A DNA stretch of 63,288 bases, counting the filler. It is 5 parts of 5 records of this genome, joined end to end, with 100 filler letters (N's around TTAATTAATTAA, not from the genome) between each part and the next. Parts side by side here need not be neighbours in the genome. Positions count along the whole stretch, not along the records: positions 21,991 to 29,451 come from SRR31156797_4252; 4 more parts are not named here. The stretch is one strand, 5' to 3'. The notes beneath the pieces are model-generated. The model was not told the origin of the DNA. It worked only from the letters and a program-made list of their open reading frames with translations, and searched no databases. The translations under genes were made by a program, and so were the position numbers. Below, piece after piece: positions 21,991-63,225 of the stretch; positions within the stretch are counted from its first letter, which is position 1; every line of letters starts with the position of its first letter.

Positions 21991-22127
21991 ATTGTATTTT
22001 AATAATTTAGAAATTTTGCATAGGTATCTTACAACCTACCTTACACACAAAAACTCCAAAACACAAATTGTTCACAAAGTAGTTAAGGGTTCATTGAGAA
22101 TTCCAAATGCTTCGATGATCTTAAGCT

Positions 22128-23063
22128 TTATATACTTCCTCTGGTGTTGAGCCATCCAAACATTTTATCAAAGGCATTTTCCCGTGCCGGTTTACCAGAC
22201 AGGAAAACATCATGCACTGCATTTTCAATTTCCACCATCTTTACATCCGGACCCAGCTGCGGTGATATCCTTTTGATATCCTCAACATTTAAGATCACAT
22301 CACTGGTTTGTGCAACCTTTTTATATTTAAATATCCGGGCAGATCTGTTTGAATGCAATACCAGCACCGGGACCTGTATATTTGATGAACGCAATGACCG
22401 TTGCGCCCGAAAAACAGCACTTATCCAAACAAACCAGGTTTGAAACCCATCGATAGGTTTCCATTTGAGGCTATAATCCCATTCACCAAAATGATCCTTG
22501 TGCAGCGACATACCATATGCTGGTGGGATGGTCTTTTTGATAGCTGCACCTGGTGCAATCTTTGCCATTAAGTTTGCAGCAATTCTTGAGAGCGGCCTCA
22601 ACATCGGGGGTTGATTAAAATCGAGAAACGGCGCATTTAAAATCAGGACATCAACCAGGTTTCTGGAGTTACCCTTGTTCATATATATCGCAGAGATCAA
22701 CCCTCCGGTGGAATGTCCAAGAAGGATTAACCTGTTGGGATTGATTGTCTTTATCTTGTCGGTAGCCAGATCGATTTCCTCGAAATAATCCGTGAGATTT
22801 TTACAAAAGTTGGGCCGCTGATGTGGCAAAAGTGAGCGGCCGTGCCTGCGCAGATCAAGCGCATAAAAATCATAACCTTCCCTGTTAAACCGCTCAGCCA
22901 TGTGATCCTGAAAAAAGTAGTCCACATAGCCGTGGATATACAGTACACTTTTTCGGTTTTGGGTATTATTTTTTGATGCGATGAGAGTAGCTTCCACTTC
23001 ACCATCAATGTCATCTTGTAATGAGAGTGTCTCTATTGAATATTTCCGGAGCATTTCGGCCAT
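22128..23063 (-). CDS. Alpha/beta hydrolase (lysophospholipase-like)
   Basis: LYIHGYVDYF, GHSTGG nucleophile elbow, C-terminal HDV. Confidence 0.9.
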   Translation of the reverse strand: MAEMLRKYSIETLSLQDDIDGEVEATLIASKNNTQNRKSVLYIHGYVDYFFQDHMAERFNREGYDFYALDLRRHGRSLLPHQRPNFCKNLTDYFEEIDLATDKIKTINPNRLILLGHSTGGLISAIYMNKGNSRNLVDVLILNAPFLDFNQPPMLRPLSRIAANLMAKIAPGAAIKKTIPPAYGMSLHKDHFGEWDYSLKWKPIDGFQTWFVWISAVFRAQRSLRSSNIQVPVLVLHSNRSARIFKYKKVAQTSDVILNVEDIKRISPQLGPDVKMVEIENAVHDVFLSGKPARENAFDKMFGWLNTRGSI

Positions 23064-23064
23064 G

Positions 23065-24678
23065 TTACTTCATCATAAAATTCATCTCCTGCTTCTTGTA
23101 TTCCCGCATTTGTTTTACAGGCTCTATGATTGTATAACCATCCCACAACTGATCGTCAAACTGGTCAACAAAAATGACTTCCATTTTTTTCTTTTCCTTA
23201 AAATCCGCGAATGCCTCGCCGGAGATTTCGGTGTTATCCAAAACAAGGTATTCCACCGATTCTTTCATCGACATGGCTAAGCGAAACCGCACCTTTACCT
23301 CCATCAATGTTTTATCAAAAAGGAACCGTTTTCTTTTTTTTATCAATGCTATTTTCCGGTTGATACTGGCATTTGAAGCACTGTTATAGGAAAAATATTT
23401 GAGTGCATAAGTGCTGTTCTGCTTCTCAAAATAAATAGAACCGCTAAACTGTGTTTCCGCGTAGCCAACGCCCAATAGTTGAATTTCCAATCCCAGCTTA
23501 CCTGGAGCATAGGCATAATCGGCACGCACCAACGCATAGGTTTTGGTGGCAATGAACAGGCGTCCCTCGTACAGCCCTTTCGCCCTGGGCCTGAAATCAA
23601 TAATATATACTTCCTCGCCATTTACACGGGTTCCACCGGCAAGTGAATATTTATAACGCGCGGTTTTATGCAAAAACTCCCATTGATCTTTATCTTCGAG
23701 GTTTGTGTACCGCTCCTTGCGCACAATACCCCATCTTTGATATTTTACCCATCGCTCATTTCCTTTCAGGGTATCTTCCTGTGGTTCAGCAACTATTGTG
23801 TCAAACTGCGAATTAAATTCCAGTGAATCGCTAACCACGGAATCTTGATCGTTTTCTTCTTCCATATCAAGCTTACCACCAAAAATGCCGCTTCTCGCCT
23901 TCCAGTATTCATCCTCATCTGTGTTGGCAAAGGCATTTTCAAAAATGGCTTCAAGCTGCTTAAGATCGGCAACGTCTTTTTCCATTAATGATACGGTTCT
24001 GATAGGATCAATTTTGAAGGTTACGGAATCCTCCGGATTTTTGTTGTAATACAGATCGCCCAAAAAATCAGTGAAAGAGGTAAAATTGTCCGGGAATTTT
24101 TCTTCCACCAGATCAATCATATCCCTGTCCAGTTGCGGAACCGAGCTTTTTTTATATTTCAACTCAAACCCGGTAATGTCCTGATTATCGCGGTCGCGGA
24201 TAAAAACCTGTCGCCTGCTTGTGGTTAGCTTATAGTTTTTGCTTTTGTTTTCGAGCACCTTTTTTACAATCTCCCTGGGATTTGGGCTGCCCCCGAAAAC
24301 CAGTATTTCGCTGAGGTTGATGATATCCTCTTCCATCAACACATCAGGCGAATGCTTTAACTGTTCGATGGTGCGTTTAACTGTTTTGTAACCCATATAC
24401 TGGAAACGTACAGTATCAGCAAAACCAAGTCCTGAAATATCCATGGCATACTGTCCGTGTTCATTACTCACGGCACCGGTATGCTTGCTCAGCACATAAA
24501 TGTGGGTGTAAGGCAACGGAGCCTTGCTTTTATGATCGAGCACCAGGCCGTGAATTACCAGCGAAGAATCCCCGGAAGGGCTGATTTCCGTTTCGATCTC
24601 CGGGGGGAACAATGTTGCAAATCCTGCCGTGGAAAGCAAAAGCAATAAACCGATGAATGGTATGCACTTCCTGATCAT
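23065..24678 (-). CDS. Carboxypeptidase-regulatory-like domain exported protein
   Basis: Signal peptide; GLVLDHKSKAPLPY..GAVSNEHGQY..YMGYKT pattern. Confidence 0.75.
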   Translation of the reverse strand: MIRKCIPFIGLLLLLSTAGFATLFPPEIETEISPSGDSSLVIHGLVLDHKSKAPLPYTHIYVLSKHTGAVSNEHGQYAMDISGLGFADTVRFQYMGYKTVKRTIEQLKHSPDVLMEEDIINLSEILVFGGSPNPREIVKKVLENKSKNYKLTTSRRQVFIRDRDNQDITGFELKYKKSSVPQLDRDMIDLVEEKFPDNFTSFTDFLGDLYYNKNPEDSVTFKIDPIRTVSLMEKDVADLKQLEAIFENAFANTDEDEYWKARSGIFGGKLDMEEENDQDSVVSDSLEFNSQFDTIVAEPQEDTLKGNERWVKYQRWGIVRKERYTNLEDKDQWEFLHKTARYKYSLAGGTRVNGEEVYIIDFRPRAKGLYEGRLFIATKTYALVRADYAYAPGKLGLEIQLLGVGYAETQFSGSIYFEKQNSTYALKYFSYNSASNASINRKIALIKKRKRFLFDKTLMEVKVRFRLAMSMKESVEYLVLDNTEISGEAFADFKEKKKMEVIFVDQFDDQLWDGYTIIEPVKQMREYKKQEMNFMMK

Positions 24679-25111
24679 TTGGTTGAAATATTAACGGTTA
24701 CAATATACAAACATTTGCGGTTCCTGACAAACCCGGAAAATCCATAAAAGACGACTTTTCTTGCCATGTCATTCAGGATGTGTTAATGCTAAACTGATGA
24801 TTTAGTGAATGATGCCGGCTTAACCAATCACCGCATTAAACAATTATCCGCAAGACGATCAGGACGTGATTTTGTTACATCCCGAATACCCTGCAATAAA
24901 CAAATCCTTGCAGTGTTGATATTCAAACCATCTCCGGTTTTATGGCGGCTCCTGGAAATATTTTATTTTAGCAGGTGAATTATCAAAACCTGTGAACATG
25001 AAAAATTTTACCATAATCCGTGTGAACCTTAAGCCCCCTGTTTCGGGTTGTCATTTCAACTGAGCAGAAAGCGGGTTTTGGATGTGATTTTGATAAAAAT
25101 ACACAAACCTG

Positions 25112-25174
25112 AACATATCTGCAGTATGATGTTGGATATGTTTGGAAAAGTGGAATATATTATGAGTTAGTAGC
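25112..25174 (+). mobile_element. attI-like primary recombination site of cassette array
   Basis: Core GTTAGTAGC (25166-25174) is the reverse complement of GCTACTAAC at the end of the first gene; no attC-type left arm upstream; 8-bp inverted repeat AACATATC/GATATGTT at 25112-25142. Confidence 0.6.
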
Positions 25175-25202
25175 AACTTTTAAAAAGACAAAAATTTACA
25201 AA

Positions 25203-26588
25203 TTGAAAAGACATTTAATCATACTAAGTTTTCTTCTAATTGCAATTTCTTCATTTTCTGATTATCGATTAACTCGGGGACCCAACATTGGAGAGGTATA
25301 TTATATTGGACCAACTTACAGTGGATTGGGCATTTACCACTCGACTGATTTTGGGAATACTGCAGTTTGTGTTGATAGTACAACTAATGCAACAGGAGTT
25401 GTTGCAGACTTATCAGAAGGAGTGCTTTATTACAGAAACATGGGAGAGGCATTATATATTTCTTATAATCACGGTCAACAAGGAACATGGCAACTTCAAA
25501 ATGGTGGGATTTACCCTGGATTCGCAAGCGGCAGAATAGAAGGAGAAATTTACAACATTATCGTTTCTCATAGTGATAATTATGGCGAAACTTTTAATCC
25601 ACATAGTTACAATGGCTTTTTTGGCAACTACTTTGAAAGCGAAATAGACAACCAACCAGATATTGGATACCTGCTTACCTACAAATCAAGTGTTGCAGAT
25701 TCTGTATACTTATTGAAATCAATTGACAATTATGAAAATTTAGAATTAAATCGGGTTTTTAACTTCCATTGGAACGATGCAATTACTCTGACCAGAGGAA
25801 CAAATAGTGGAGAGTTATATTTATTGAATAGCACCAATCGTGAACTATGGTTTACTAATGACTTTTCAGAAAGCTGGATTAAAGTGGACAACATTAATTT
25901 TGGTAGCAGCCCTTATGGAGCTACAATAGTCGGAGGAAGACAAAATGGAGAAGTCTATATTAAATATGACTTTGTTAATTTAATGTGGCAAAATGCCCAT
26001 ACTTACATTTTCCACTCAACTGACTATGGGAAAACCTTTGAAGTTTTCCATCCTTTTGGAAAAGGAAATGAACCTGTTTTAGCAAATTTCTCTACAACAG
26101 AAAATGAGGTTTTATTGACAACCCCTGTTGCATTTTCAAACTTTTCAATAGGCAATATTTTGGAATATCAATGGGACTTTGAAAACGATGGAGTAATTGA
26201 CTCTTATGATGAATTTCCAACTCACACTTATCAAGATACGGGTTATTATTCTGTGAAACTTTCAGTGGTAGGAGCAGACAGCACAAATACCTTCATTAAA
26301 GAAAATTACATTCATGTCATTGACACCATAACAAGTAGTCCTGACTTAAATTATCAGGCAGTTAGTGTCTCGCCAAATCCTTTCAATAAAAGAATTTCAA
26401 TTGAATTAAGACAAGATTTTGAAATGATTGAAATTCTTGACTTAAATGGAAAAAGTCATTTTTCAAAAAAAATATACCCGGAAAACAAGATTGAAATCCT
26501 TGACTTGAAACAATTGAAGAAGGGAATATTCATCTTGAAAATTAGGACTAAAGGAAAAGACATTACGAAGAAAATAATAAAGAATTAA
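25203..26588 (+). CDS. Cassette 1: secreted protein with BNR-like motifs, PKD domain and T9SS type-A C-terminal domain
   Basis: Signal peptide; STDFG/STDYG; YQWDFENDG..PTHTYQDTGYYSVKL; SPNPF..KGIFILKI..TKKIIKN; TTG start. Confidence 0.85.
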   Translation: MKRHLIILSFLLIAISSFSDYRLTRGPNIGEVYYIGPTYSGLGIYHSTDFGNTAVCVDSTTNATGVVADLSEGVLYYRNMGEALYISYNHGQQGTWQLQNGGIYPGFASGRIEGEIYNIIVSHSDNYGETFNPHSYNGFFGNYFESEIDNQPDIGYLLTYKSSVADSVYLLKSIDNYENLELNRVFNFHWNDAITLTRGTNSGELYLLNSTNRELWFTNDFSESWIKVDNINFGSSPYGATIVGGRQNGEVYIKYDFVNLMWQNAHTYIFHSTDYGKTFEVFHPFGKGNEPVLANFSTTENEVLLTTPVAFSNFSIGNILEYQWDFENDGVIDSYDEFPTHTYQDTGYYSVKLSVVGADSTNTFIKENYIHVIDTITSSPDLNYQAVSVSPNPFNKRISIELRQDFEMIEILDLNGKSHFSKKIYPENKIEILDLKQLKKGIFILKIRTKGKDITKKIIKN

Positions 26589-26597
26589 GAAAAAGCA

Positions 26598-26736
26598 GCT
26601 ACTAACAGCCCATGATAGCCCATAGCCGGCTTACGGATCATCAAGAAAAAGAATTGTAAATTTGAGCATATGTAACATCAACGAACATCAGAGTAAAGAA
26701 ACGGCTACGGGCCATATGGGCAAAACGTTGGCAACC
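26598..26736 (+). mobile_element. attC-like site 1
   Basis: GCTACTAAC-A-GCCCATgATAGCCCATAGCCG..CGGCTACGGGCCATATGGGC-AAAAC-GTTGGCAACC imperfect palindrome. Confidence 0.85.
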
Positions 26737-26755
26737 ATATAAGCATGTATGTAAA

Positions 26756-27541
26756 ATGAAAAATATCATACTATTAATATTAGCAACACTTCTTTCGAAT
26801 CTAAACATCTTCGGACAAACTCGAGTTATTTCTGGGAGAGTGATAACTGAGTATTTAGAACCATTACCTATGTTAGACATTCAAAATTCTGATGCAAAAA
26901 TCCTAGGTAAAACAGATATGGATGGGAGGTTTAAATTTAGCATTCCTCAAGAAACGGACAGTTTGCTGTTTCGCTATATCGGCTTGGAGCGGACTGATAT
27001 AAAATTAAAGCACGATTGCGACACAATAGAAGTTATCATGTTTTATAGTGGATCCTCTCATTGGTCCTTTAATAAAATAGATAGAATTCGCAAGAAAAGA
27101 TTTGATGAATTACCCAACATACATACTATTGCAGTAAAAGAAGGGCTATTTACGACTAATTCTAATTGCTATGAAAGAGAATTTAAACCTGATAAACCAG
27201 AACTGAAAGTGATTAGTAAGTATTTAAAAGAATTAAGGAAAGCTAACAAAAATGATTTTAAAGAATTAAAAATCGGTGACATTGTAAAAATACCATTTGG
27301 AGTAAACAGCTCGGAAAAAAGTATTAGTAGTACTTATTCACTTTGCGAGAATTGTACTGAGGAAGATTATGATTACGTAATTACTGGAAAGATTATTAAT
27401 AAATACAGAAGAAATTTTACTCTTAAAATTGAGATTACAGAAATGCAACAATATGACTCCTTAGAATATAGAGGGAAGACTTTAAAAATCGGCAATGATT
27501 TTAAATATGAGATGAGAATTTTTAAAGTGATAATAAATTAA
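26756..27541 (+). CDS. Cassette 2: exported hypothetical protein with carboxypeptidase-regulatory-like N-terminal domain
   Basis: Signal peptide; ISGRVI..EPLP..TDMDGRF..FRYIG. Confidence 0.75.
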   Translation: MKNIILLILATLLSNLNIFGQTRVISGRVITEYLEPLPMLDIQNSDAKILGKTDMDGRFKFSIPQETDSLLFRYIGLERTDIKLKHDCDTIEVIMFYSGSSHWSFNKIDRIRKKRFDELPNIHTIAVKEGLFTTNSNCYEREFKPDKPELKVISKYLKELRKANKNDFKELKIGDIVKIPFGVNSSEKSISSTYSLCENCTEEDYDYVITGKIINKYRRNFTLKIEITEMQQYDSLEYRGKTLKIGNDFKYEMRIFKVIIN

Positions 27542-27544
27542 AAC

Positions 27545-27670
27545 GGTTGCCAACAAAAGCTAAACACCATAAGGGTTTTGGCGCATTAGAAATGAATAAG
27601 AATACGTAAAAAAAATAAAACAAAATAGGGAAAAGCTCCTTACAGTGCTTAGCCCCGACCGTTGTGGGTA
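27545..27670 (+). mobile_element. attC-like site 2
   Basis: GGTTGCCAAC-AAAA-GCTAAACACCATAAGG..CCTTACAGTGCTTAGC-CCCGACC-GTTGTGGGTA. Confidence 0.85.
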
Positions 27671-27706
27671 ATGCAACCAAAGACATAGACGTAAGATGAA
27701 TTAAAT

Positions 27707-28363
27707 ATGAAATACACAGAAGACATAGTAAAAAAAGCAGCGAAGGATGCATATTTGAATGGTGATGTAAAATTTGAGATTTTAACTGAAAATTGTGCGT
27801 TGATTGTGATTGACATGCAAGATGAATTCGTAAAGCCAGAGTGGACATCCTCTTGGATTCCTGAAGCGACAAAACAAGTAACAAAAATAAAAATCCTAAT
27901 AGATTTCTGTAGACAAAAAAAAATCCCAGTAATTTATACAGCATTCAAGGATACTCATTTGTACAAAGACAGACCAAAAACAGGAGATTTGATGCCGAAT
28001 AGATATCCTGAATTAGGAGAAGACTCAACTTGGTTTAAGCAAGGGAAGATATGGCATGAATTAGAACCTAATGAACATGATATTGTGATTTACAAGCCAT
28101 CTTATGGTGCTTTCTATGATACTCCATTAGAGACAATTCTAAAAAACTTAGAAAAGGATACGATTATAATTTGCGGTACACTGACGAATTATTGCTGTGG
28201 AACAACTGCGAGACAGGGATATGAGCGAGGTTTTAAAGTACTTTTTGGGAGTGATGTGACTTCAACCGATGATCCAGAGATGCAAGAACCTGAATTAAAA
28301 GTATTAAGAAAAGGATTTGCAAAGGTTATGACTTTAAACGACATACAAAATCACATAGGATAA
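27707..28363 (+). CDS. Cassette 3: isochorismatase-family cysteine hydrolase
   Basis: ALIVIDMQDEF, KPSYGAFYDT, GTLTNYCCGTTARQG (D-K-C triad). Confidence 0.92.
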   Translation: MKYTEDIVKKAAKDAYLNGDVKFEILTENCALIVIDMQDEFVKPEWTSSWIPEATKQVTKIKILIDFCRQKKIPVIYTAFKDTHLYKDRPKTGDLMPNRYPELGEDSTWFKQGKIWHELEPNEHDIVIYKPSYGAFYDTPLETILKNLEKDTIIICGTLTNYCCGTTARQGYERGFKVLFGSDVTSTDDPEMQEPELKVLRKGFAKVMTLNDIQNHIG

Positions 28364-28369
28364 TGCACA

Positions 28370-28506
28370 TACCCACAACAGCCAATATAGAAAATAGCTG
28401 GGCAGTAGGTTTTCGAACTTCGGTAGCCCGCATCAGGCTTTTATCTCGGTAGATAGGAACGTAGCCCGTATTCCGCTAATTTCCATATTGGCAACACGTT
28501 AGCTGC
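28370..28506 (+). mobile_element. attC-like site 3
   Basis: TACCCACAAC-A-GCCAATATAGAAAATAGC..GCTAATTTCCATATTGGC-AACAC-GTTAGCTGC. Confidence 0.85.
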
Positions 28507-28514
28507 AAGGCAAA

Positions 28515-29426
28515 ATGACAGACATGAGAGATATTTACTCAAAAAGAAATAAAAGTGTTCCTGATAAACTTGTCTATAACCAAATTGACGAGAAACTACG
28601 TGTTCAAATTATCAGGACATGGTGGAAGTTTTTTAATCAGTATGATGAAGAAACATCTGAAAAACTATGGTTCAAAATCAATAGTATAATCTGTGACGAA
28701 CACGGAAAACATACTCTCCTTGCAGATGACCTAAGAAGATGGAAGGAGAGTTACAGGTGCCAATATTACTTTGAGAACTTGGAATCTTTAGACGAATCTT
28801 TTGATGTCATTGAAATTGTATTCAGAGCTATATCTAAAATTCCCGAAGTCATTCATCTAAGAATATCTCCAAGACCAGATGAAGTAATAGCTGAGCTAAA
28901 CGAGAGATTTCGAGAAAACGACTTTGGTTATGAATTTACTAAAGGCATGATAGTTAGGGTGGACAATAAACTGCTTCATAAGGACATAGTAAATCAAGTA
29001 ATCCAATTAACTAATGACAGTTTTTTTTCAAATGCAAATGAAGAGTTTCTGTCTGCTTTGAATCATTTGAGACATGGGCGTAATAAAGAAGCCTTAAACG
29101 ATAGCCTAAAGTCATTTGAATCCACTATGAAAATAATAATCCACGACATGGGTTGGGATTATAATGAAAATGACACCGCAAGTAAATTGATTCAAAAATG
29201 CCTTGACAATGAACTGATTCCGAAATCCCTTCAAAGTCAATTTTCTGCACTAAGAACAACTCTTGAAGCAGGTATACCGACCATTCGAAATAAGAATAGC
29301 GGACATGGACAAGGTCCTAAGAAAATCGTAGTTCCTGACAGCTTAGCGACCTATTCAATTTACATGACCGGGACGTGCATTAATTATCTAATCGAATTGT
29401 ACAAAGAAAAAAAGCCCAGCAGCTAA
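28515..29426 (+). CDS. Cassette 4: STM4504/CBY_0614-like protein with abortive-infection-like C-terminal domain
   Basis: IYSKRN..LRVQII N-terminus; ELNERFRE..GYEF; KSFESTMK; PTIRNKNSGHGQG (RxxxxxH); stop codon lies within inverse core. Confidence 0.7.
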   Translation: MTDMRDIYSKRNKSVPDKLVYNQIDEKLRVQIIRTWWKFFNQYDEETSEKLWFKINSIICDEHGKHTLLADDLRRWKESYRCQYYFENLESLDESFDVIEIVFRAISKIPEVIHLRISPRPDEVIAELNERFRENDFGYEFTKGMIVRVDNKLLHKDIVNQVIQLTNDSFFSNANEEFLSALNHLRHGRNKEALNDSLKSFESTMKIIIHDMGWDYNENDTASKLIQKCLDNELIPKSLQSQFSALRTTLEAGIPTIRNKNSGHGQGPKKIVVPDSLATYSIYMTGTCINYLIELYKEKKPSS

Positions 29427-29451
29427 TCGAGTAGACGGCCCCGGCCATGAA
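29426..29451 (-). mobile_element. 3' end of putative group IIC intron inserted in attC-like site 4
   Basis: Reverse strand ..GGCCGGGGCCGTCTACTCGAT|TAGCTGC; replaces the hairpin arm expected after GCAGCTAA. Confidence 0.65.
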
Positions 29452-47286: not shown

Positions 47287-47592
<306 letters not shown>

Positions 47593-47768
47593 CTAGCTCC
47601 TGAATTACTTAAAGTAAGCTTTGTGAAAAATCTATCCCTACTCACAATGCGTAAATAGGGACGCAAAATTCTATGCACCAGTGGGAGGTGTGTCAAGAAA
47701 TATACAGATCTTTTTTTAGCCCGTTTTTGGGCAAGAAGTGGTACTGAATACAAATGAGAAGAGTAAAG

Positions 47769-48044
47769 TCACCAAGATATTGATTTATCGTGATTTATAG
47801 TGAGTTCGACAAAATCAAACCTATTGATGATTTGAATTGTTGTCGCACACTTTTTTAGCCAGCCACGAGCTTGCAGATCCTCTTGCAAAACATAGATGCC
47901 ATTAACCTTTCTAATGTGAGCAAAATACTCCGTATTTTCAGCTACAGCATAGACAGCATTTTCCGTTAACAACAAAATGTCTGAAGGTTGTAGGTAACGT
48001 TGAACAAGCTTTAGCTTTTCTAGCGATTTAACAATATGTAACAA
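47769..48044 (-). CDS. tusB: Sulfur relay protein TusB
   Basis: MLHIVKS..LLTENAVY..EDLQARG..SISW; operon position. Confidence 0.9.
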   Translation of the reverse strand: MLHIVKSLEKLKLVQRYLQPSDILLLTENAVYAVAENTEYFAHIRKVNGIYVLQEDLQARGWLKKCATTIQIINRFDFVELTINHDKSISW

Positions 48045-48054
48045 GCCAAATACC

Positions 48055-48411
48055 TCAGAAAGTCAGCAACTGATCAAACTTATCCCATTCGACAGCCATC
48101 TCTTGTGGTGAGAGAAGTTGTCCGTCGATGATAAGATCATTTTCATCTACGCCCCAATCCTGCATGCTTTGCTCACAGATAAAGCGTTGTTCAATGTCAT
48201 AAAGGTCCAGCAACTTAAAGGCACTGATATAATCTCGACTGAGGACTTGCGCAGGATCTTGTTCCTTCAACAACTGCAAAACACCTTCGCCGACAAAGAA
48301 AATAGCGAGTTCTTCTGAATACGCAGAAGCGGCCAATAATGCATCGAGCCCTTCTCTCCCTGATGAGATTGCATGCGGAGCGGAATGAAATATAAAAGCG
48401 ACTTTCTTCAA
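48055..48411 (-). CDS. tusC: Sulfur relay protein TusC
   Basis: [18 protein letters not shown]. Confidence 0.93.
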
Positions 48412-48815
48412 AATTGCACCACTCTGTCTTGGCTAAGTAACGCCTCTGCCAGACTACCTAAACCCGACTGTTCAAACTGTTCAGCTAAGTTATTGGATGA
48501 CAACTGATGCTGGTTCGCTTCCGCCTCACCAATCACACCTCGGCGCAATGCTGCAGCAACGCAGGTTTCTAAACGCACCTGATGCTTTACTGCTAATGTT
48601 TGCCAGGCTTTGACCAGGTCAAATTCATCATTGGCAGGCACGGTTAAAGCCGAACCATTAAACACACCATCTTGATAGAAAAAGACACTTTTCAACTGGT
48701 GACCTTTTTCTATCAGAGCTTGTGCAAACAGGTAGGCATTACGTGCCGATTGGGTTCCATAGACAGAGCCGTTAACCAATAAAGTGTAGGTTAACGAGAC
48801 TTCGCCAGAACTCAC
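48408..48815 (-). CDS. tusD: Sulfurtransferase TusD
   Basis: [26 protein letters not shown]. Confidence 0.95.
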
Positions 48816-49537
48816 GCTTCATCATCCTCAGTTTTACGCTGACGGATATAAAGATACACAGTGTGCTTAGAAATATTTAAGCGGTCAGCAACACGGTTAA
48901 TCGCATCTTTGATATCGAAGATACCTTTATCGAACAGAGCCATCACTATCTGGCGGTTCTTGGTGTTGTTTGATACGGTCTTGTCGGTATTGATCTCTTC
49001 AATCGTACGCTCAACCGTTTGGTCCACCAGCTCTTCAACATCACTAGCAAAGTTCACTGACGACGCGGCATCTTTGGCTTCTTGAGTTGGCATAAATGAC
49101 TGAAGCACTTGCGAGAATGGTGCGTCTAAGTTGACGTTGATACACAGCAAGCCAATCACTCGATTTTCTCCATTACGAATTGCGACCGTAATGGACTTCA
49201 TCAAAACGCCACCTTTAGCGCGGGTAAAGTACGAGCGCGAGAAGTTACGTTCGGAGCCTTCTATGTCACGCAGCATCTTTAATGCTAAATCGGTGATAGG
49301 AGAACCAACCTGGCGACCTGTATTTTCACCGTTGGCAATTTTAATCGCAGAGGTATTCAAATCTTCCAATGAGTGCAAAACAATTTCACAGAAAGGGCCG
49401 ATCAAGCTGGCGATGCCGTCTACAACGGCTTCATAAGAACGCAAAATGACTTTGTCATGTTCGCTGAATGGCTTCACATGGACAGATTCCATTTCTAGCA
49501 GCATGTCAGCATTGTTAAAAGTTTCTGTTGTTGTCAC
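48812..49537 (-). CDS. yheO: YheO-like PAS/HTH transcriptional regulator
   Basis: [35 protein letters not shown]. Confidence 0.9.
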
Positions 49538-49716
49538 TGTACTTCGACCTTAAAAGTAAAAATCAACAAATTGGTGTAAGTTTATCAGAAAATTTGACTC
49601 GGTTAGTTAGCTATATCACTTACAACTGATTTGAAACAAAATATGTGTTCAATCTCACTTATATAACCAGTTGAAAGCAAAGTGTAAGGATGAATATCCC
49701 TTTAGGCACCACAAAG

Positions 49717-49743
49717 AAAAGGCCTGAACGAATCAGGCCTTTT
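49717..49743 (-). terminator. fkpA terminator
   Basis: AAAAGGCCTGA-ACGAA-TCAGGCCTTTT. Confidence 0.8.
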
Positions 49744-49765
49744 GCAAAATCGACTGGTGAGTTAC

Positions 49766-50539
49766 TTATTGTGCAGCTTCTTCACCGTTATCAATTTTTA
49801 GCAACTCAACTTCAAATACGAGTGTTGAGTTCGCTGGAATGGTTGGTGTGTCTTGTTCGCCATACGCAAGTTCAGGCGGGATAACAAACTTAAACTTAGA
49901 ACCCACAGGCATTAACTGCACGCCTTCTGTCCAACCAGGGATAACACGGTTTAGAGGGAAGGTAGCGGGTTCACCACGATCGTATGAGCTATCAAACTGA
50001 GTACCATCCGTTAACGTACCTTTGTAATGAACTTGAACCGTATCAGTGTCTTTAGGCTGCTCACCTTCCGCTGGGGTGATCACTTGGTAAAGTAAACCAG
50101 ATTCTGTTTTCTTCACGCCTTCTTGTTTTTCAAACTCTGAACGGAATGTCTCACCTGCTTCTTTGTTTGCTGCCGCTTTTTCAGCTGCTTGAGCTTGCAT
50201 GGTTTCCGCTACGCGCTTATCCAATGCTTCTAATGCTACACGAGTCTCTTCTTCTGTTAGCTCTGCTTTGCCAGCAAAAACATGTTCGATACCTTGAAGA
50301 ACGATATCTTTGTTCAATTCAATACCGATCTCACGAGGCTTATCTAAACTCGTATTCAAGTAGTTTGCAAAAGAGACACCGATTGCGTATGCCGCTTTAT
50401 CATCGTCCGTTTTAAAAGTGACTGCTTGTTGCTCTTGTGCTGCCGGAGTTGCTTCCGCTTTCGGGGCTTCATCTTTTTGGCAACCGACTGCAAGCATTAC
50501 CGTTGCAGCTAGCAGTGACACTTTAAATAGTGATTTCAT
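49766..50539 (-). CDS. fkpA: FKBP-type peptidyl-prolyl isomerase FkpA
   Basis: Lipobox-like [36 protein letters not shown]. Confidence 0.95.
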
Positions 50540-50753
50540 TTAATTCTCCAATTTGTTGGCAAAGCTTTTGTTATTATGCACAAAATTTACGTTGTCGCTG
50601 GTGCATAACAAAAAGTTGTACCAATATAGCGGTATGTTTTGTGATTGTCTCTAAGGTCTTGTGACCTTTCGCAATTAAAACGGTTCTTAACTCGAACAAA
50701 GTTTAACCCCAAGAGGTTAATAGCCCTATTCACTGAGCGGATAATTAGACCTA

Positions 50754-51734
50754 ATGCGGATAATCTACCATCTGACACTCTATTTTATTGTCATTGTTAC
50801 GTTAAACGGCTGCTTTTTCACAGGAAAAGAACTTGAGCGCTGGAATCTCGAGCCCAACGGTTCAACCAGCTTTGGGTTAAGTAGAGACGGTCGCTTCGCT
50901 CTGATCTATTCCAAAGAGCATCAATTAGTGCTTTGGGACCTTAGCACTCGTGAAAAACTGGCTGATCTCGGTCCACAAGATCCACAACAAAATACCGTCT
51001 CCCGCATCCGTCTTTCAGACAATGGACAATTTGCTGTCACAGCCAGTCAAATCAACTTTGCCGTTTGGGATTTAGCTTGGTCACAAGCAAAAGGCTTATG
51101 GTCAATCTCTGACGGTTTAATTCGCGACATTGATATCAGTAGCGATGGTCAACAAGTCTTACTCGGTCTTTCCAATGGCAAAGCCATATACGTCGATTTA
51201 GTCAGCGGAAGACGGATGGAGTTCCTTGCTCACCAAGAAAAAGTCAATTCCGTCGCTCTTGCTCCAAATGGGCGCTACGCGCTTACTGGAGGCAACGACT
51301 ATAAAGCTTACTTTTGGGACACCAAAACTGGACAAATATTGCATACCTTTGAACACGAACAACGAGTCAACCGCGTTGCTCTACAACGGGACGGCGAACT
51401 CGCATTTACTTCCGATGGTGGAAATCAGGCATTTGTTTGGGAACTCCCTTCTGGTCTGAAAAAATCTCAACTAAGCAGTTTTTCACGTCAGCTTATCTTT
51501 TCCAGCGCTCGTTTTTCAGATTCTGGCGATAAACTCGTGACAGGCACACCATCAAGCAGAGTAGAAGTCTGGAACACAGAGAGTGGTAAAAAACAGTCTA
51601 CATTCGAAGCTGAACCGCTAAAAGATACTCGCCCACCTCGAGCAGTAGTGTATGATGCGGTTTTTGATTCTCAGAATAGAATAGTTTCAGGAAGCTCTGC
51701 TGGAATTGCTCAAGCATGGCAGCTTGATAACTGA
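50754..51734 (+). CDS. WD40-repeat lipoprotein
   Basis: LNGC lipobox; repeated WD/WE/WN blades. Confidence 0.85.
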   Translation: MRIIYHLTLYFIVIVTLNGCFFTGKELERWNLEPNGSTSFGLSRDGRFALIYSKEHQLVLWDLSTREKLADLGPQDPQQNTVSRIRLSDNGQFAVTASQINFAVWDLAWSQAKGLWSISDGLIRDIDISSDGQQVLLGLSNGKAIYVDLVSGRRMEFLAHQEKVNSVALAPNGRYALTGGNDYKAYFWDTKTGQILHTFEHEQRVNRVALQRDGELAFTSDGGNQAFVWELPSGLKKSQLSSFSRQLIFSSARFSDSGDKLVTGTPSSRVEVWNTESGKKQSTFEAEPLKDTRPPRAVVYDAVFDSQNRIVSGSSAGIAQAWQLDN

Positions 51735-51754
51735 AGCCTAGAATTGGTATTACG

Positions 51755-51970
51755 ATGACAGAACAACTTCAACAACGTATTGATGACCTCGAATGCAAAG
51801 TCGCATTTCAGGAGCAAACCATTGATGAACTGAACGAAGCGCTTGCGCAACAGCAGTTATTAATCAATAAAATGCAAGATCAAATGAAATATGTGGTTGG
51901 TAAAATGAAAAACATGGAAACGTCAAACATGGCAGATCCAAATAAAGAACCGCCACCACCGCACTACTAG
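51755..51970 (+). CDS. slyX: SlyX family protein
   Basis: LECKVAFQEQTIDELN..EPPPPHY. Confidence 0.93.
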   Translation: MTEQLQQRIDDLECKVAFQEQTIDELNEALAQQQLLINKMQDQMKYVVGKMKNMETSNMADPNKEPPPPHY

Positions 51971-51993
51971 TTAATGGTTTATAAATAATCGGA

Positions 51994-52179
51994 TTACGAG
52001 AAATAGTAAGCCATGACAGCGCCAGCAACGACTAGACAACCACCTATGCGGCGTAATTGATTGTCTGGCTGTTCACTAAGTTGAGCGACCATCTGGCGCC
52101 AACCGTTCGGCGCAATCAACGGTCCGAGTCCCTCAACGACGAGTACAAGACCTAGTGCCATCCACAATGAATTAGACAT
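51994..52179 (-). CDS. yjeT: DUF2065/YjeT membrane protein
   Basis: ALGLVLVVEGLGP..LRRIGG; ATG 52179. Confidence 0.88.
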   Translation of the reverse strand: MSNSLWMALGLVLVVEGLGPLIAPNGWRQMVAQLSEQPDNQLRRIGGCLVVAGAVMAYYFS

Positions 52180-52195
52180 ATCTGTTCCCATAAAG

Positions 52196-52223
52196 AAAGG
52201 CTCCATCATGTGGAGCCTTTTTT
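52196..52223. terminator. Hairpin/terminator after hflC
   Basis: AAAGGCTCCA-TCATG-TGGAGCCTTT. Confidence 0.7.
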
Positions 52224-52241
52224 ATTTGATTAATGACGCAA

Positions 52242-53222
52242 TTATTTTACTGACTCGCCTTTAGCATTATTCATGTATTGGAAGAAGTCACTCTTCGGAT
52301 CCAACACTAAAATATCGCCTTTCTGGCTAAACGACTTCTCGTACGCTTTCAACGAACGTAAGAAGCTATAAAACTCAGGGTCTTTGTTATACGCATCAGA
52401 GTAAATCTTGGCCGCTTTTGCATCAGCATCACCACGTGTTACACGTGCGGTTTTATCCGCTTCAGCCAAAATTGTAGCTACTTCAAGTTCCGCTTGTGCA
52501 CGGATAACTTCCGCTTTTTCACGACCTTGAGAGCGGTGCTTACGAGCAACTGACTCACGCTCTGCACGCATACGACGGTAGATGGACTCACTGATTTCAT
52601 CAGGTAAGTTGATTTTCTTCATACGGAAATCAACCACTTCGACACCTAAGTCCTTCATCGCACTTTGACGAGTATCGTTAAGCACGTTTTCCATGATTTG
52701 ATCACGCTGACCATCAATTTCCAGAGCTTGCTTAGCCGCTTCCGTCGTTACAACTTCGGCATCCGCACTTTCCGGTAATACATCTTTGTTACGAGGGCCA
52801 GAAACGATTTGTTTGATTTCGCGTGCACCAATTTCTGAGCGAAGCACGTCAGTGACTTTACGCTCTAAAAGCGCTTCAGCAGTCATCGCATTACCGCCAC
52901 CCGTTGCCAGGTAATATTGACCGAAATCTTTAATACGCCATTTAACGTAGGTATCAATGATTACGTCTTTTTTCTCAGCGGTGACGAAACGGTCTGCACG
53001 GCCATCCATGGTTTGAATACGTGCATCAAGTGATTTCACACGATCAAACAGTGGCATTTTGATATGTAGACCAGGCTCATATATTTTAGCGATATCGTTG
53101 TTATCTTTCATTACTCGACCAAAACGAATAACAAAGCCTTTCTCCCCTTCAGGGATAACAAACATCGACATCAGTAATAGAGCCAATACTACGACAACAA
53201 CAGGGATCATTAACTTACGCAT
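52242..53222 (-). CDS. hflC: FtsH modulator HflC
   Basis: SPFH domain; LDARIQTMD, RMRAERE. Confidence 0.97.
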   Translation of the reverse strand: MRKLMIPVVVVVLALLLMSMFVIPEGEKGFVIRFGRVMKDNNDIAKIYEPGLHIKMPLFDRVKSLDARIQTMDGRADRFVTAEKKDVIIDTYVKWRIKDFGQYYLATGGGNAMTAEALLERKVTDVLRSEIGAREIKQIVSGPRNKDVLPESADAEVVTTEAAKQALEIDGQRDQIMENVLNDTRQSAMKDLGVEVVDFRMKKINLPDEISESIYRRMRAERESVARKHRSQGREKAEVIRAQAELEVATILAEADKTARVTRGDADAKAAKIYSDAYNKDPEFYSFLRSLKAYEKSFSQKGDILVLDPKSDFFQYMNNAKGESVK

Positions 53223-53224
53223 TA

Positions 53225-54424
53225 TTAGTATCTCCCTTGACGTGAACTGGTTGAACGAGATTGAGCATCAGTATCAGTATTCGATGTCGAACGCTGAGAT
53301 TCTAGCTCAATATGGTCGTAAGCCGATGATGACTTCTCAGCACGCTTTGTAGTAGTCGATTGCTGATCTGCCAACTTATCAATCGGCAAATAAAGCAGGT
53401 TACCACTAGATTCAGAATCAATAAGTACTTTAGAAGTGTTGCTATACACCTCTTCCATCGTATCTAAGTACAAACGGTTACGTGTAACTTCAGGCGCCGA
53501 TTGGTACTCAGGTAGTAGCTTTTCAAACTGAGCCACTTGACCCAGAGATTCGTTAACAACACGCTCGTTGTAACCCAAAGCTTCTTTTTTCAGACGTTCA
53601 GCACGCCCTGTTGCCTTAGGAAGAATTTCATTTTTATAAGCTTCAGCTTCACGAATGAAACGCTCTTCATCCTCACGAGCCGCGATAGCATCATCAAACG
53701 CATCTTTCACTTGCTCAGGTGGACGAGCAGACTGGAAGTTCACGTCAACGATGATTAAACCCATATCGTAGCTATCAATAATTTGATTCAACGTTTCTTG
53801 AGTGCTTTGACGAATCTGTTGACGACCACTGGTTAGGATGCTGTCCATTAGTGAATCACCAATTACCGCACGTAACGCTGAATCCGTAGCTTGGCGTAAG
53901 CTATCGTCCGCATTCGTTACTCGGTATAGGTACTTGAACGGGTCTGCAACACGGTATTGAACATCCATTGCAACCGTCACAACGTTCTCATCTTTGGTCA
54001 GCATTAGACCCGATGCGCGCATTGAGCGGATTGCTTGAATATTTACCGGAGTAACTTCGTCGATAAAGCGAGGACGCCAGTTTAGACCAGGCTCGACAAT
54101 ACGATCGTACTTACCTAAACGCAGCACAACACCACGCTCGGCTTCGCCGATAGTATAGAAACCAGCAAAGACCCAGATAGCAATCGCAATCACTGCAATC
54201 ACACCAAAGCCAATTGCTCCGCCGCCGGAGAAAGAAGGGCCTTTACCGCCACCACCTTTCTTACCAAATTTTCCACCCAGTTTTTGACTCAGCTTGTTAA
54301 ACACTTCATCTAGATCTGGTGGACCTTGTTCACGGCCGCCTTTATCACCACGATTATTGTTACCCCATGGGTCATTATCGCGGCCATTATTGCCGTTATT
54401 ATTTCCGGGCTCATTCCACGCCAT
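53225..54424 (-). CDS. hflK: FtsH modulator HflK
   Basis: MAWNEPG, GPPDLDE, MLTKDENVV. Confidence 0.97.
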   Translation of the reverse strand: MAWNEPGNNNGNNGRDNDPWGNNNRGDKGGREQGPPDLDEVFNKLSQKLGGKFGKKGGGGKGPSFSGGGAIGFGVIAVIAIAIWVFAGFYTIGEAERGVVLRLGKYDRIVEPGLNWRPRFIDEVTPVNIQAIRSMRASGLMLTKDENVVTVAMDVQYRVADPFKYLYRVTNADDSLRQATDSALRAVIGDSLMDSILTSGRQQIRQSTQETLNQIIDSYDMGLIIVDVNFQSARPPEQVKDAFDDAIAAREDEERFIREAEAYKNEILPKATGRAERLKKEALGYNERVVNESLGQVAQFEKLLPEYQSAPEVTRNRLYLDTMEEVYSNTSKVLIDSESSGNLLYLPIDKLADQQSTTTKRAEKSSSAYDHIELESQRSTSNTDTDAQSRSTSSRQGRY

Positions 54425-54469
54425 TAGAAAGCTCCATCATTTGATATGACGTTATACTCTAGCAGTCCT

Positions 54470-55759
54470 TTAAGTAACTATAAAGTCACGTAAAACTGCC
54501 TCTTCTCTTTTCTCTAGTCTAGACCAATCTACCTGCTGCATACGAATTGATATCAGCAAATTGCCCTCTGAATCATAATCTTCGTCCTGAATACAGTTCA
54601 TTTGGAAGAAAGTACTGCGTATTCGGCCTTGATGCTGCGGCGGAACACACAACTTGTATTCAACGATTTGACTGGCTAAACGTTCAGTCAACGCCTGAAA
54701 CAGCAAATCAATGCCCAGGCCTTCCATTGCTGAGATCCAGACAGCTCTTGGCATTCCCTCGTCATCTCTTTCTATACGAGGCTCTTGCAGATCTAGATTG
54801 TCAATCTTGTTCATGACTAACAGGACTGGCACTTCATCGGCGTCAATTTCCTGTAACACATCATCAACAGCTTGGATATTCTCACGAAAACGGTCGTCAC
54901 TTGCATCAACAACATGTAACAAAATGTCAGCTTCTTGCGTTTCTTGCAGTGTTGCTTTAAACGCTGCCACCAAATCATGTGGCAAATGACGAATAAAACC
55001 AACTGTATCCGCTAAAACAGCCGGACCGACATCATCCAACTGAATTTTTCTTAACGTTGGATCCAATGTCGCAAACAATTGGTCAGCAGCGTATACCCCT
55101 GCTTCAGTAATTCGGTTAAACAGAGTCGACTTACCCGCGTTGGTATAACCAACGAGAGAGACTGTCGGTATTTCCGCTCTGTTTCTTGCACGTCTGCCTT
55201 GCTCACGCTGTTTAGCTACACGCTCTAAACGGCGCAAAATTGCTTTAATTCGTTCACGCAATAAACGTCGGTCGGTTTCTAACTGGGTTTCACCCGGACC
55301 ACGTAGGCCGATACCACCTTTCTGGCGTTCCAAGTGCGTCCAACCTCGAATCAATCGAGTTGAAAGATGACGTAACTGAGCTAGCTCGACTTGCAACTTA
55401 CCTTCATGGGTACGCGCTCGCTGAGCAAAGATATCAAGAATTAAACCAGTACGGTCAACAACACGACACTGACATAAGGCTTCTAGGTTACGTTCTTGGG
55501 CAGGAGAAAGGGAATGGTTGAAGATCACCACATCGGCTTCTGTAGCTTTAATCGCCTGTGCAATCTCTTGGGCTTTACCTTCACCAACATAATATTTAGG
55601 GTGAGGAGATTGACGACTTCCGGTGATCACCTGAAGTGTCTCAACTCCTGCGGAAGATACCAGCATTTCGCATTCGCTGAGATCTTCCCATTCACCCTGT
55701 TGCGTGAAGTTGATATGAACAAGTACGGCTCGCTCACCGGCTTCATAACGGTCAAACAA
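54470..55759 (-). CDS. hflX: Ribosome-splitting GTPase HflX
   Basis: GYTNAGKST, LFATLDPT, DTVGF, NKID. Confidence 0.98.
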   Translation of the reverse strand: MFDRYEAGERAVLVHINFTQQGEWEDLSECEMLVSSAGVETLQVITGSRQSPHPKYYVGEGKAQEIAQAIKATEADVVIFNHSLSPAQERNLEALCQCRVVDRTGLILDIFAQRARTHEGKLQVELAQLRHLSTRLIRGWTHLERQKGGIGLRGPGETQLETDRRLLRERIKAILRRLERVAKQREQGRRARNRAEIPTVSLVGYTNAGKSTLFNRITEAGVYAADQLFATLDPTLRKIQLDDVGPAVLADTVGFIRHLPHDLVAAFKATLQETQEADILLHVVDASDDRFRENIQAVDDVLQEIDADEVPVLLVMNKIDNLDLQEPRIERDDEGMPRAVWISAMEGLGIDLLFQALTERLASQIVEYKLCVPPQHQGRIRSTFFQMNCIQDEDYDSEGNLLISIRMQQVDWSRLEKREEAVLRDFIVT

Positions 55760-55801
55760 GCTATCAACTCCTTAATAAATATAGCTTTATATTTTTAATA
55801 A

Positions 55802-56104
<303 letters not shown>

Positions 56105-56259
56105 CTAGCGGTGCACTAAAAATCGGTGCAGACCTTGCCTATGAGCTAAACGAATAAAAACCCCGTTGTGAAATGATATGGTGATAAAAAAACCAAAAAC
56201 AAGTCACGATCCCTGACAGGGTAAATCACGCAAAAGCGATCACATTATACACAGTGAAA

Positions 56260-57192
56260 TCAATCTAATGCTATGGCATTTGAAACTGTTTCGAATGCAA
56301 GATCAATGTTTTCGCTATCTAACCAAGTTAGATCATCCCAGCTGCGCAACCAGGTGATCTGACGCTTGGCCAATTGGCGGGTTGCACAAACTCCACGAAA
56401 AATCGCTTCATCTAAACTGCAATTCCCATCCAAGTAGTCCCACATCTGTCGATAACCCACACAGCGAATCGAGGGTAAATCTGGATGAAGATCCTTTCGA
56501 GCATAGAGTGCTTTCATTTCATCTTCAAATCCATTTTCAACCATCTTTTCAAAGCGTAGCTCAATTCGACGATGGAGCTCTGCCCTTTCCTTGGGTGCTA
56601 TTGCGAACTGCTTAACTCGAAATGGAAGTGGTTCTCCTTTCGTTTTCGTCAGCTCAGTTAGAGTTTTACCTGAAATTCGATAAACTTCCAATGCCCGCGA
56701 CAATCTTTGTGGATCATTTGGGTGAATTCTCTCAGCAGAGACCGGATCTATCGCTTTAAGTTGGTCATGTAAAGCGTCCCAACCATTATCATTGGCTTCT
56801 TTTTCAATTTGCTGACGAATTTCAGGATCCGCCGCCGGTAAAGGAGATAACCCTTCAAGTAGCGCTTTGTAATACAGCATAGTGCCCCCCACCAGCAGTG
56901 GGATCTTGCCTTGAGCCGCTATCTCATGCATCTCATTTAACGCATCACGACGAAAATCCGCCGCAGAATACGATTCGCTCGGATCGAGAATATCGATCAA
57001 GCGATGCGGAGCCAATTGCTGCTCTCTAGCATCCGGTTTCGCCGTACCAATATCCATACCTTTATAGATTAACGCTGAATCAACACTGATGATTTCAACG
57101 AGGTACTTCTGACGTAAACGTATCGCCAGTTCGGTCTTTCCTGATGCGGTTGGCCCCATTAAAAATAGAGCCAAAGGTAAATCTTTGGTCAT
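56260..57192 (-). CDS. miaA: tRNA dimethylallyltransferase
   Basis: [32 protein letters not shown]. Confidence 0.98.
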
Positions 57193-57197
57193 GAGTT

Positions 57198-59129: not shown

Positions 59130-59143
59130 ATTAACTTTTTAGG

Positions 59144-60856: not shown

Positions 60857-61314
60857 AGCTCCAACTGACTCAGTAACGTACGTCCATACTCGTTATTAGC
60901 GGTCAGCAATGCTTGACGTTGTTCACCATCGTAACGAATTTCGATATCAATATCCGAAGTAGGCAGTAACCCCTGCCCCTTTTCTGGCCACTCAACCAGA
61001 CAGATCGCATCATCAGTGAAATAATCTCGGATCCCCATAAATTCAAGCTCTTCGGGATCCGCTAAACGATATAAATCGAAATGATAAACCTGCCAGTCAG
61101 CAAGCTGATAAGGTTCAACCAAAGTATAAGTTGGGCTTTTTACATTTCCCTGATGCCCTAACGCACGGATAAAGCCTCGGCTAAATGTGGTTTTCCCAGC
61201 ACCAAGATCACCATGCAAATAGAGCGTTGTCTGTTGAGAACACAACTTTGATAGTTCTGTGCCAAGTTTCACGGTTGCCTGCTCATCTTTTAAAGTAAAC
61301 GTCTTAGTGCTCAT
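60850..61314 (-). CDS. tsaE: t6A biosynthesis ATPase TsaE
   Basis: [28 protein letters not shown]. Confidence 0.97.
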
Positions 61315-61533
61315 TTAATATTTCTCAACTTCGTCGTTGGCTTTGACATCCCAACGACTATATAAAAACCAATACAACCCGAATAGTAAACTGGGAAGGA
61401 ATTGTGAGACAAGCAATCTTCTGTAAGCAAACAGAAAAATCTATGATCATTTTCCTTGCAACATCTTCTGACGCTAGATCCGCAACTGGAGATCCGTTAA
61501 GATCCTCGCCCCATACTCTAAGCCTAACTCACC

Positions 61534-62646: not shown

Positions 62647-62657
62647 ACATTGCACTT

Positions 62658-63003
62658 ATATACACAAAATTTATGCATGTACCTTGATATGCTTCTCAAA
62701 TCAGACCTATGTGGAAAAAAAATTATTGCAGTAAACTTTTCTATATTTGAGAAAAGTTAGTCACATCAGCAGGAAATGATTAGGATCAAGGAAAATACAG
62801 TTAATGATCGTTTTTTACTAATTATTAGCCATATAAAAATGAAAACAACCCATTAAAAAACAACAACTTAAGCAAAATTAGACCGATTATAGCAATCTCT
62901 ATTACCACAAAAGATCCTGATTCTTCATTGAGTTTACTAAACAAAAAACAAATTATTCACCGAGTTATCCACAATTATATTTTGTGGATAAGTCTGTGCA
63001 TGA
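62658..63003. promoter_or_regulatory. datA-like cluster of DnaA boxes and IHF-like sites
   Basis: TGTGGAAAA 62710, TTATCCACA 62965, TGTGGATAA 62983, degenerate boxes 62658/62953/62995; IHF-like AAACAANNNNTTA at 62843 and 62858; lies between queG and tRNA-Gly. Confidence 0.7.
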
Positions 63004-63225
63004 ACAGTATAAAGATATCCTGAACACTGAGTACAGATGGGATAAAGAGGCAATTGAAGAATTTGCTTTTATCGAAAGGAGCTCGACCTAAATTAGGTGA
63101 GTTTCAACTTAGAGGGCTTATGCTTCACAGCATTATAGAAAGAGCATTGGCAATATGCCAAGTTTTGCAGTGTCAAAAGCAAAAAAATCTGCGACAAGCG
63201 CAGTTTACTTTTAATATTTTGATTT

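Follow-up and report, generated by a model that had tools for sequence, protein, structure and literature searches.

The third of five contigs that, joined by N-linkers, make up a stretch of 63,288 nt (in the following the window, to which all positions refer) carries at 21991-29451 an array of gene cassettes with integron-type recombination sites (attC), and at the right end of this contig the fourth site, attC4, is interrupted. Its inverse core (R'') is followed by 26 nt that do not continue the site, and then the contig stops, so that we were interested in what these 26 nt are and how they came to lie in attC4. The original prediction had read them as the end of a group IIC intron in antisense orientation. 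From the comparisons described below, they very probably represent the 3' end of a group II intron that belongs to class C (IIC) and to a Bacteroidota clade, or of a 5'-truncated copy of such an intron, on the minus strand inside attC4 at GT|TAGCTGC.

The window reads aaaagcccag cagctaatcg agtagacggc cccggccatg aa at 29410-29451, followed by the N-linker, and these letters bear out the contig break noted earlier 26 nt past GCAGCTA. The sequence to be expected at this place follows from the array: in units 1-3 the start word of 9-10 nt is the exact reverse complement of the unit's own 3' inverse core (9/9, 10/10 and 10/10), as expected of integron cassettes, with GTTAGTAGC at 25166 corresponding to GCTACTAAC at 26598 in cassette 1, GTTGGCAACC at 26727 to GGTTGCCAAC at 27545 in cassette 2 and GTTGTGGGTA at 27661 to TACCCACAAC at 28370 in cassette 3. 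Together with the start of unit 4, GTTAGCTGC at 28498, this complement rule leads to the GCAGCTAAC that had been predicted for site 4. What is found is GCAGCTAA, then TCGAGTAGACGGCCCCGGCCATGAA and then the contig end, with a T directly after GCAGCTAA where a C is expected. The minus strand of the contig end is TTCATGGCCGGGGCCGTCTACTCGAT|TAGCTGC, and the bottom-strand reading ..GGGGCCGTCTACTCGAT|TAGCTGC given earlier is correct.

Read on the minus strand, positions 29426..29451 comprise the 3' arm of intron domain VI with its bulged branch-point A, up to the 3' splice site ...CGAT, as assigned by letter identity to the intron ends of loci L001, L002, L010 and L011. The bottom strand ends in ...GCCGTCTACTCGAT with the branch-point A 7 nt from the intron 3' end, which is the arrangement of a domain VI (bulged A 7-8 nt from an ...AY end); the matching 5' arm, GTGAGAGGCGC..CCCCGGTC, is predicted for a full intron beyond the window. 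The retained R'' of attC4, GCAGCTA at 29419..29425 (+), forms as its bottom strand the 3' exon TAGCTGC, and the insertion point is GT|T in this inverse core, antisense to all four cassette open reading frames (ORFs). As the intron end is joined directly to T|AGCTGC, which complements the R'' GCAGCTA-AC to be expected here, the prediction of an antisense insertion into the attC bottom strand at the inverse core holds. Of the exons, the window shows only the T of the 3' exon (intron-binding site 3, IBS3), and the 5' exon lies beyond the contig end. The insertion point falls within the TAA stop codon of cassette 4 (29424-29426), which is part of the inverse core; the last base of the intron restores this codon, and the AbiJ-like gene of this cassette is thereby left intact.

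The G+C content of the 26 nt is 62% (hand count) compared to 37% for contig 21991-29451, and they are unlike any of the three L'' arms that come after AAC in attC1-3. The window contains a single copy of the 21-mer GGCCGGGGCCGTCTACTCGAT, which was absent from all 100 shuffles. Exact matches were obtained at five loci in species-representative genomes, all of them metagenome-assembled genomes (MAGs) of Saprospiraceae or other Bacteroidia, and at eight metagenome loci, with ~0.3 chance matches expected in 596 Gb according to our own arithmetic. By their flanks these 13 loci fall into nine distinct sites, the base after the 21-mer is T in 13/13, and all 13 are intron ends or intron remnants, with no attC arm among them. 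Over the longer stretch, 26/26 nt are identical to L002, 24/24 to the intron end of L010 and 25/26 to the intron end of L011. In L001 the letters of the 21-mer close a match to Rfam RF00029 (group II domain V-VI) of 40.2 bits at a gathering score of 40; the alignment has UA bulged and stops exactly at ...CUACUCGAU, with the end GAU.

Two of the nine sites with the 21-mer hold complete introns, L011 with 1995 nt and L010 with 1948 nt, both starting with GTGTGCCC (GTGTG) and both matching RF02001 (116.7 and 113.5 bits respectively). Their ORFs show RVT_1 and GIIM (Pfam) without a nuclease domain. The bodies of the two introns are only 63-69% identical, compared to 94% for the last 51 nt, and therefore the 26 nt in the window carry a lineage signature. 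Both introns have as 5' exon the bottom strand of an attC from the same family as those in the window, AAC-GG-TTTGCA(A/T)ATATGG..., with a long stem and ...TGT| at the end. Nine complete introns of the clade were compared, namely L010, L011, three copies in genome G004 and those on Persicobacter, Adhaeribacter, Chryseobacterium and Chondrinema plasmids: TGT closes the 5' exon in 9/9, T opens the 3' exon in 9/9, a long hairpin ends 3-7 nt before the insertion site in 9/9, and AAC-G stands just 5' of the hairpin in 9/9 (read by eye). On the annotated plasmids the introns of the clade lie antisense to the gene next to them. TGT| also stands at the end of four further complete sites (4/4; 13/13 overall), and T is the first 3' exon base in only 2/4; survey loci L057, L059 and L060, whose intron ends could not be paired with the patterns used, were left out of these counts. 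On plasmids (704 plasmid records matched) only introns of Bacteroidota (Chryseobacterium, Tenacibaculum, Adhaeribacter, Fulvitalea) and one remnant beside tet(X4) show the similarity through domain VI, and other class C introns on plasmids match in domain V only.

Close relatives of the intron-encoded protein (IEP) were found in five of 401 Bacteroidota genomes sampled, G004 among them. The three G004 copies have GTGTG and an open IEP frame with a YADD motif, and the one that was scanned, L022, matches RF02001 and RF00029. This complete Saprospiraceae chromosome (G004:C1) carries at 492-519 kb and 725-746 kb three near-identical full introns and one broken one (L022, L025, L027, L048 and L052); two of the full introns are 10 kb apart. 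The two regions resemble inverted duplicates and contain many tyrosine recombinases, among them frames of 611 aa near these introns. The 611-aa frames were considered as integron integrases and rejected, as they give a two-piece match to TIGR02249 (integron integrase) below the cut-off, with ~11 codons between the pieces in place of ~50 unmatched model positions (182-233). In genome G224 two identical introns (L054 and L058) follow different attC-like 5' exons and share a common 3' flank, GTGTGCTGTGAGG (GTGTGC), that does not start with T; it looks as if the downstream segment travels with the intron, or as if both copies landed in a repeated element.

For the class assignment, a maximum-likelihood tree of 24, then 25 IEPs was calculated with an RmInt1-like outgroup and without the broken L035 (9 stops). 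A clade of 23 rows (100/100) holds the relatives of the window intron together with, among others, Kl.pn.I3, the intron of Microscilla pSD15 and the intron of a Streptococcus agalactiae plasmid; outside it lie the RmInt1-like outgroup and, beside this, the Enterobacter plasmid intron L019a. The pSD15 record and S. agalactiae are listed among the class C references in PMC3001079. The relatives of the window intron thus show two features of class C, an IEP without endonuclease domain (RVT_1 and GIIM only) and a place inside the class C clade. RF02001 (domains 1-4) was dropped as a test for IIC, as it also matches the RmInt1-like outgroup and shows group II only. Within the 23 rows, the nine Bacteroidota introns at attC sites form a clade of their own (100/100), and the four introns from class 1 integrons (Kl.pn.I3, L034, L036 and L037, antisense in annotated cassette arrays) form another (100/100). 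The Bacteroidota clade joins the Firmicutes class C introns in a set of 13 rows (95/97) that excludes the four integron introns, and a tree in which the two attC groups are forced into one clade costs 26.4 log-likelihood units and is rejected (approximately unbiased (AU) test, p = 0.0059), the groups having been named as a hypothesis, but the AU test having been run after the first tree was seen. The IEPs of the relatives do therefore not fall into the IIC-attC clade as represented in this tree, from which its chromosomal members (Geobacter, Nitrosomonas and others) are absent. The references for IIC-attC introns were obtained via an accession in PMC5027574; introns on Serratia IncC, Pseudomonas, Enterobacter and Azoarcus plasmids were rejected as such references, since they lie outside integrons.

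Contigs of four sequencing runs were compared to the window over 28300-29451. In run X1 (source-like), a Logan contig with a depth of 334 spans the junction and stops 17 nt past the window end, i.e. 43 nt into the element; this re-assembly uses the same reads as the window and provides no independent data. Run X18, from another study, has cassette 4 with 22 differences in 925 nt and then CACAAC AAAGAAC... after 29421, in effect a near-empty site with an uninterrupted ...AAC core followed by a different, A+T-rich arm. In a second X18 contig (record 7), a different gene is joined to the same junction (29412-29443, 2 differences), and the contig ends 8 nt later. To the left of cassette 4, contigs of X18, X19 and X2 (other studies) depart from the window at 28497/28498, which is the G|TT crossover point of attC3, and carry different neighbours there, and two other X1 contigs with an attC3-like site lead into other cassettes (change at 28500/28502). 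Neighbours that change at the crossover point of attC3 are direct evidence for movement of the AbiJ-like cassette. The comparison of runs supports the view that the sites are of attC nature and that the junction is real.

How such an intron would have entered attC4 can be sketched from what is described for its family. The intron RNA-protein particle would recognise the folded hairpin of the attC bottom strand, exon-binding site (EBS) 1 would pair with the 3-4 nt (T)TGT just past the stem and EBS3 with the next T, and the intron would then reverse-splice into single-stranded DNA. A reverse transcriptase (RT)/maturase without an endonuclease domain would copy the intron with a strand of the replication fork as primer, such primers being reported for endonuclease-less introns in PMC4424553. 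As attC4 is split from its R'' box, excision of cassette 4 via its own site should be blocked.

Several results weigh against an intron in attC4. Only 26 nt are present in the window, and searches for the rest of the intron (blastn with two complete relatives, and the 5'-end motif with 3 mismatches) revealed neither a domain V, an ORF or a 5' end nor the missing part of attC4 in the five contigs; a scan of the window itself gave no intron match either. RF00029 reached its gathering score in only one of the 13 loci with the 21-mer, the negative loci being truncated or having atypical domain V loops. An integron integrase is absent from the 7.5-kb contig and from the 19 of 38 window ORFs (>=230 aa) that were scanned. 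The stop of the X1 contig 43 nt into the element belongs here as well, and so does the state of the relatives: apart from the two complete introns and two copies cut by contig ends (L003 and L009), the sites with the 21-mer are remnants, so that 5/7 judgeable sites (L001, L002, L004, L005 and L007) are truncated or interrupted.

With 5/7 remnants, a dead fragment is about as likely as a full intron, and we give slightly less than an even chance to the insert being a short 5'-truncated or decayed 3' intron fragment of tens to a few hundred nt instead of a functional intron with an RT ORF. Such a fragment would stem from incomplete reverse transcription or a later deletion. Comparable pieces are known from L002, which keeps ~170 nt beside a restriction-modification locus, from L004, L005 and L007 with <=70 nt each, from L001, where the GIIM tail remains up to the gene of a Tn3-family transposase that interrupts the intron, and from E. 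coli plasmids, on which a piece of ~180 nt from the same clade follows tet(X4). A functional intron is favoured by the complete copies in related genomes (three in G004 and two in G224) and by the fact that both assemblies break inside the element (the window after 26 nt, X1 after 43 nt), which fits a repeat longer than the assembler word size; this is weak evidence, since any second domain VI copy in the sample would act alike. The earlier suggestion that a multicopy intron caused the assembly break is consistent with these data, and the repeated intron sequence probably stopped the assembly. As a separate observation, at L001 2549-6060 (minus strand, in a Saprospiraceae MAG) the intron is cut ~400 nt from its 3' end by the gene of a 1016-aa transposase with DDE_Tnp_Tn3 and DUF4158 domains.

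It is highly improbable that the junction is an assembly artefact, in which a short word common to both led to a chimeric fusion of the cassette contig with a read from an unrelated intron. The join does lie at a contig end, one base (A at 29426) is common to the expected attC and the intron, and the window is a bin of several contigs of which one has a deviant G+C content; against this, X1 spans the junction plus 17 nt when the same reads are re-assembled, record 7 of X18 from a different study shows the same kind of junction behind a different gene, and the join is found at precisely the GT|T position at which all relatives are inserted. That the 26 nt are the L'' arm of an ordinary attC hairpin with a chance likeness to an intron is barely conceivable and in our view refuted, for although they begin where an L'' arm would start and such arms differ from cassette to cassette, another base stands in place of the C to be expected in AAC, all 26 nt match intron ends elsewhere without indels, every one of the 13 matches of the 21-mer is an intron end or remnant, the G+C content deviates as given above, and the X18 allele of cassette 4 has a different A+T-rich arm past an intact AAC.

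The array that received the insertion starts at ~25166 and holds four single-gene units on the same strand. A core-type site, GTTAGTAGC at 25166..25174 (+), marks the start of cassette 1 and is the exact complement of the inverse core of attC1. Cassette 1 encodes a PKD/BNR protein with a type IX secretion system (T9SS) sorting tail (25203..26588, +; ORF and domain matches) and is followed by attC1 from GCTACTAAC to GTTGGCAAC (26598..26735, +), whose bottom strand forms a stem of ~20 bp that includes one extrahelical base, and CTGT|T lies 3 nt past the stem. The ORF of cassette 2 (26756..27541, +) matches a CarbopepD_reg_2 domain, and attC2 from GGTTGCCAAC to GTTGTGGGT (27545..27669, +) shows TTGT|T 3 nt past the stem on the bottom strand. 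Cassette 3 encodes an isochorismatase-family protein (27707..28363, +; ORF and domain match), with attC3 from ACCCACAAC to GTTAGCTGC (28371..28506, +) and CTGT|T 3 nt past the bottom-strand stem. The ORF of cassette 4 (28515..29426, +) is AbiJ-like by its domain matches (AbiJ_NTD4 and DUF7014; NCBIfam STM4504/CBY_0614 family). The sites between the units are 124-138 nt long, open with ...AAC and close with GTT..., and the bottom strands of attC1-3 fold into a ~20-bp stem with one extrahelical base and a long loop, the z-scores being modest (-0.7 to -1.7). Three intact attCs and a split one, the AAC...GTT core and single-gene cassettes in one orientation are the features of an integron array, and as seen on this short contig the array is at best a cluster of attC sites lacking integron integrases (CALIN). 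TIGR02249 gave no match at the cut-off in the five related genomes G001-G005; sub-threshold matches were obtained there and likewise in all 14 control genomes.

At the left end of the array, ~490 nt before cassette 1 (24679-25174) contain neither an attC-like arm nor an integrase gene, and the end at 25166 may be an attI-like site or a decayed attC. The genes upstream of cassette 1 on this contig encode a CarboxypepD_reg protein and an alpha/beta hydrolase on the other strand. The fifth contig of the window (47287-63288) has a G+C content of 43.8% compared to 34-37% in the other four and carries HflK, HflC, MiaA and QueG with strong NCBIfam matches, two of them PRK-derived (PRK10930 HflK and PRK11029 HflC); this contig and the cassette contig may derive from different organisms.

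An intron at R'' marks the repeats on the contig independently as attC-type recombination sites in a Bacteroidota genome, because an intron known to need the folded bottom strand used the exact R'' position, and the independent support that had been claimed for the attC nature of the sites is therefore justified. The insert parts cassette 4 from most of its attC and probably freezes the cassette in place. The domain VI signature represents a simple sequence marker for cassette arrays in Bacteroidota.

A remnant with this signature of ~180 nt was also observed on E. coli plasmids (L016 3900-4081, + strand, and L017 1184-1265, + strand), antisense to tet(X4). It consists of the C-terminus of the IEP and domains V and VI, ends with ...GCCGTCTACTCGAT and lies 22 nt past the tet(X4) stop codon, and its flank GGCACATAA| resembles a split inverse core; it was seen in 2/2 records examined, and the same 85.4% match occurs in 56 of the best 60 plasmid rows. 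Its domain VI is one base off L056 from genome G268. A cassette start for tet(X4)/estT, i.e. the complement of the R''-like end, was not found upstream of estT, and the literature searched contained no paper linking tet(X4) to a group II intron.

By its site the intron in the window behaves like an IIC-attC intron, yet on the evidence from its relatives it stands outside that group phylogenetically. We regard it as an evenly balanced question whether the introns of this lineage are a Bacteroidota-specific class C clade specialised for attC bottom strands, with the same (T)TGT|T site and outside the proteobacterial IIC-attC clade. Homing to attC would then have arisen at least twice, or would be older and wider in class C than in the picture of monophyletic IIC-attC introns, and the domain VI signature would mark Bacteroidota arrays and former cassettes, including the 3' flank of tet(X4). 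Introns that home to attC have so far been described as one proteobacterial lineage, and a second lineage in another phylum would widen this picture and allow a comparative test of how class C introns choose between terminators and attC sites as targets. The literature searched contained no account of introns associated with attC sites in Bacteroidota, and an earlier description may exist.

Among the known systems, the IIC-attC introns of Proteobacteria (S.ma.I2, E.c.I7, Kl.pn.I1 and Kl.pn.I3; Leon, Quiroga, Centron and Roy; PMC5027574 and PMC3001079) resemble the window intron in their antisense (T)TGT|T site at R'' on the bottom strand. According to PMC3001079 and PMC7923331, the target of these introns is TTGT/T in R'' on the bottom strand of attC, and their orientation is opposite to that of cassette transcription; in PMC3001079 their IEPs are monophyletic with 100% bootstrap. 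Kl.pn.I3, described as an IIC intron disrupting an attC site (PMC5027574), reads ...GCTTTGT|GTACGCCCAGCATGG...CTACCCGAT|TAGAAAT on plasmid P378-IMP, and the window junction ...CTACTCGAT|TAGCTGC lies at the same GT|T position; with this end and the ...CTACTCGAT end of an Azoarcus IIC intron, the 3'-end motif from which the original prediction had argued proves sound. The proteobacterial IIC-attC introns and the relatives of the window intron are also alike in their length of ~1.9-2.0 kb with an endonuclease-less RT/maturase, in a near-identical 5' start (GTACGCCCAGCATGGGCATG in Kl.pn.I3 and GTGTGCCCAGCATGAGCATG in L010) and in a similar 3' end (CTACCCGAT in the former, CTACTCGAT in the clade of the window). 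They differ in their hosts, which are Bacteroidota for the relatives of the window intron and Proteobacteria/NC10 for the IIC-attC introns in Table 3 of PMC3001079.

The class C introns of the terminator type (Microscilla sp. pSD15 and Azoarcus pAZKH) have the same ribozyme and IEP class as the relatives of the window intron and share with them a hairpin immediately before the insertion site, a putative short IBS1 and the 3' end ...CTACTCGAT. In the terminator-type introns (L053 and L020) this hairpin is short, G+C-rich, followed by a T-run and sense to the upstream gene, whereas the clade of the window uses long imperfect hairpins of the attC type, flanked by AAC...GTT and antisense to the adjoining gene. 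The group IIB introns in integrons and CALINs of halophiles, according to PMC7923331, likewise occur in arrays without a nearby integrase and include truncated copies; they belong to class CL1/E (IIB), with one of them in the top strand, whereas the window intron is of class C and lies in the bottom strand at R''.

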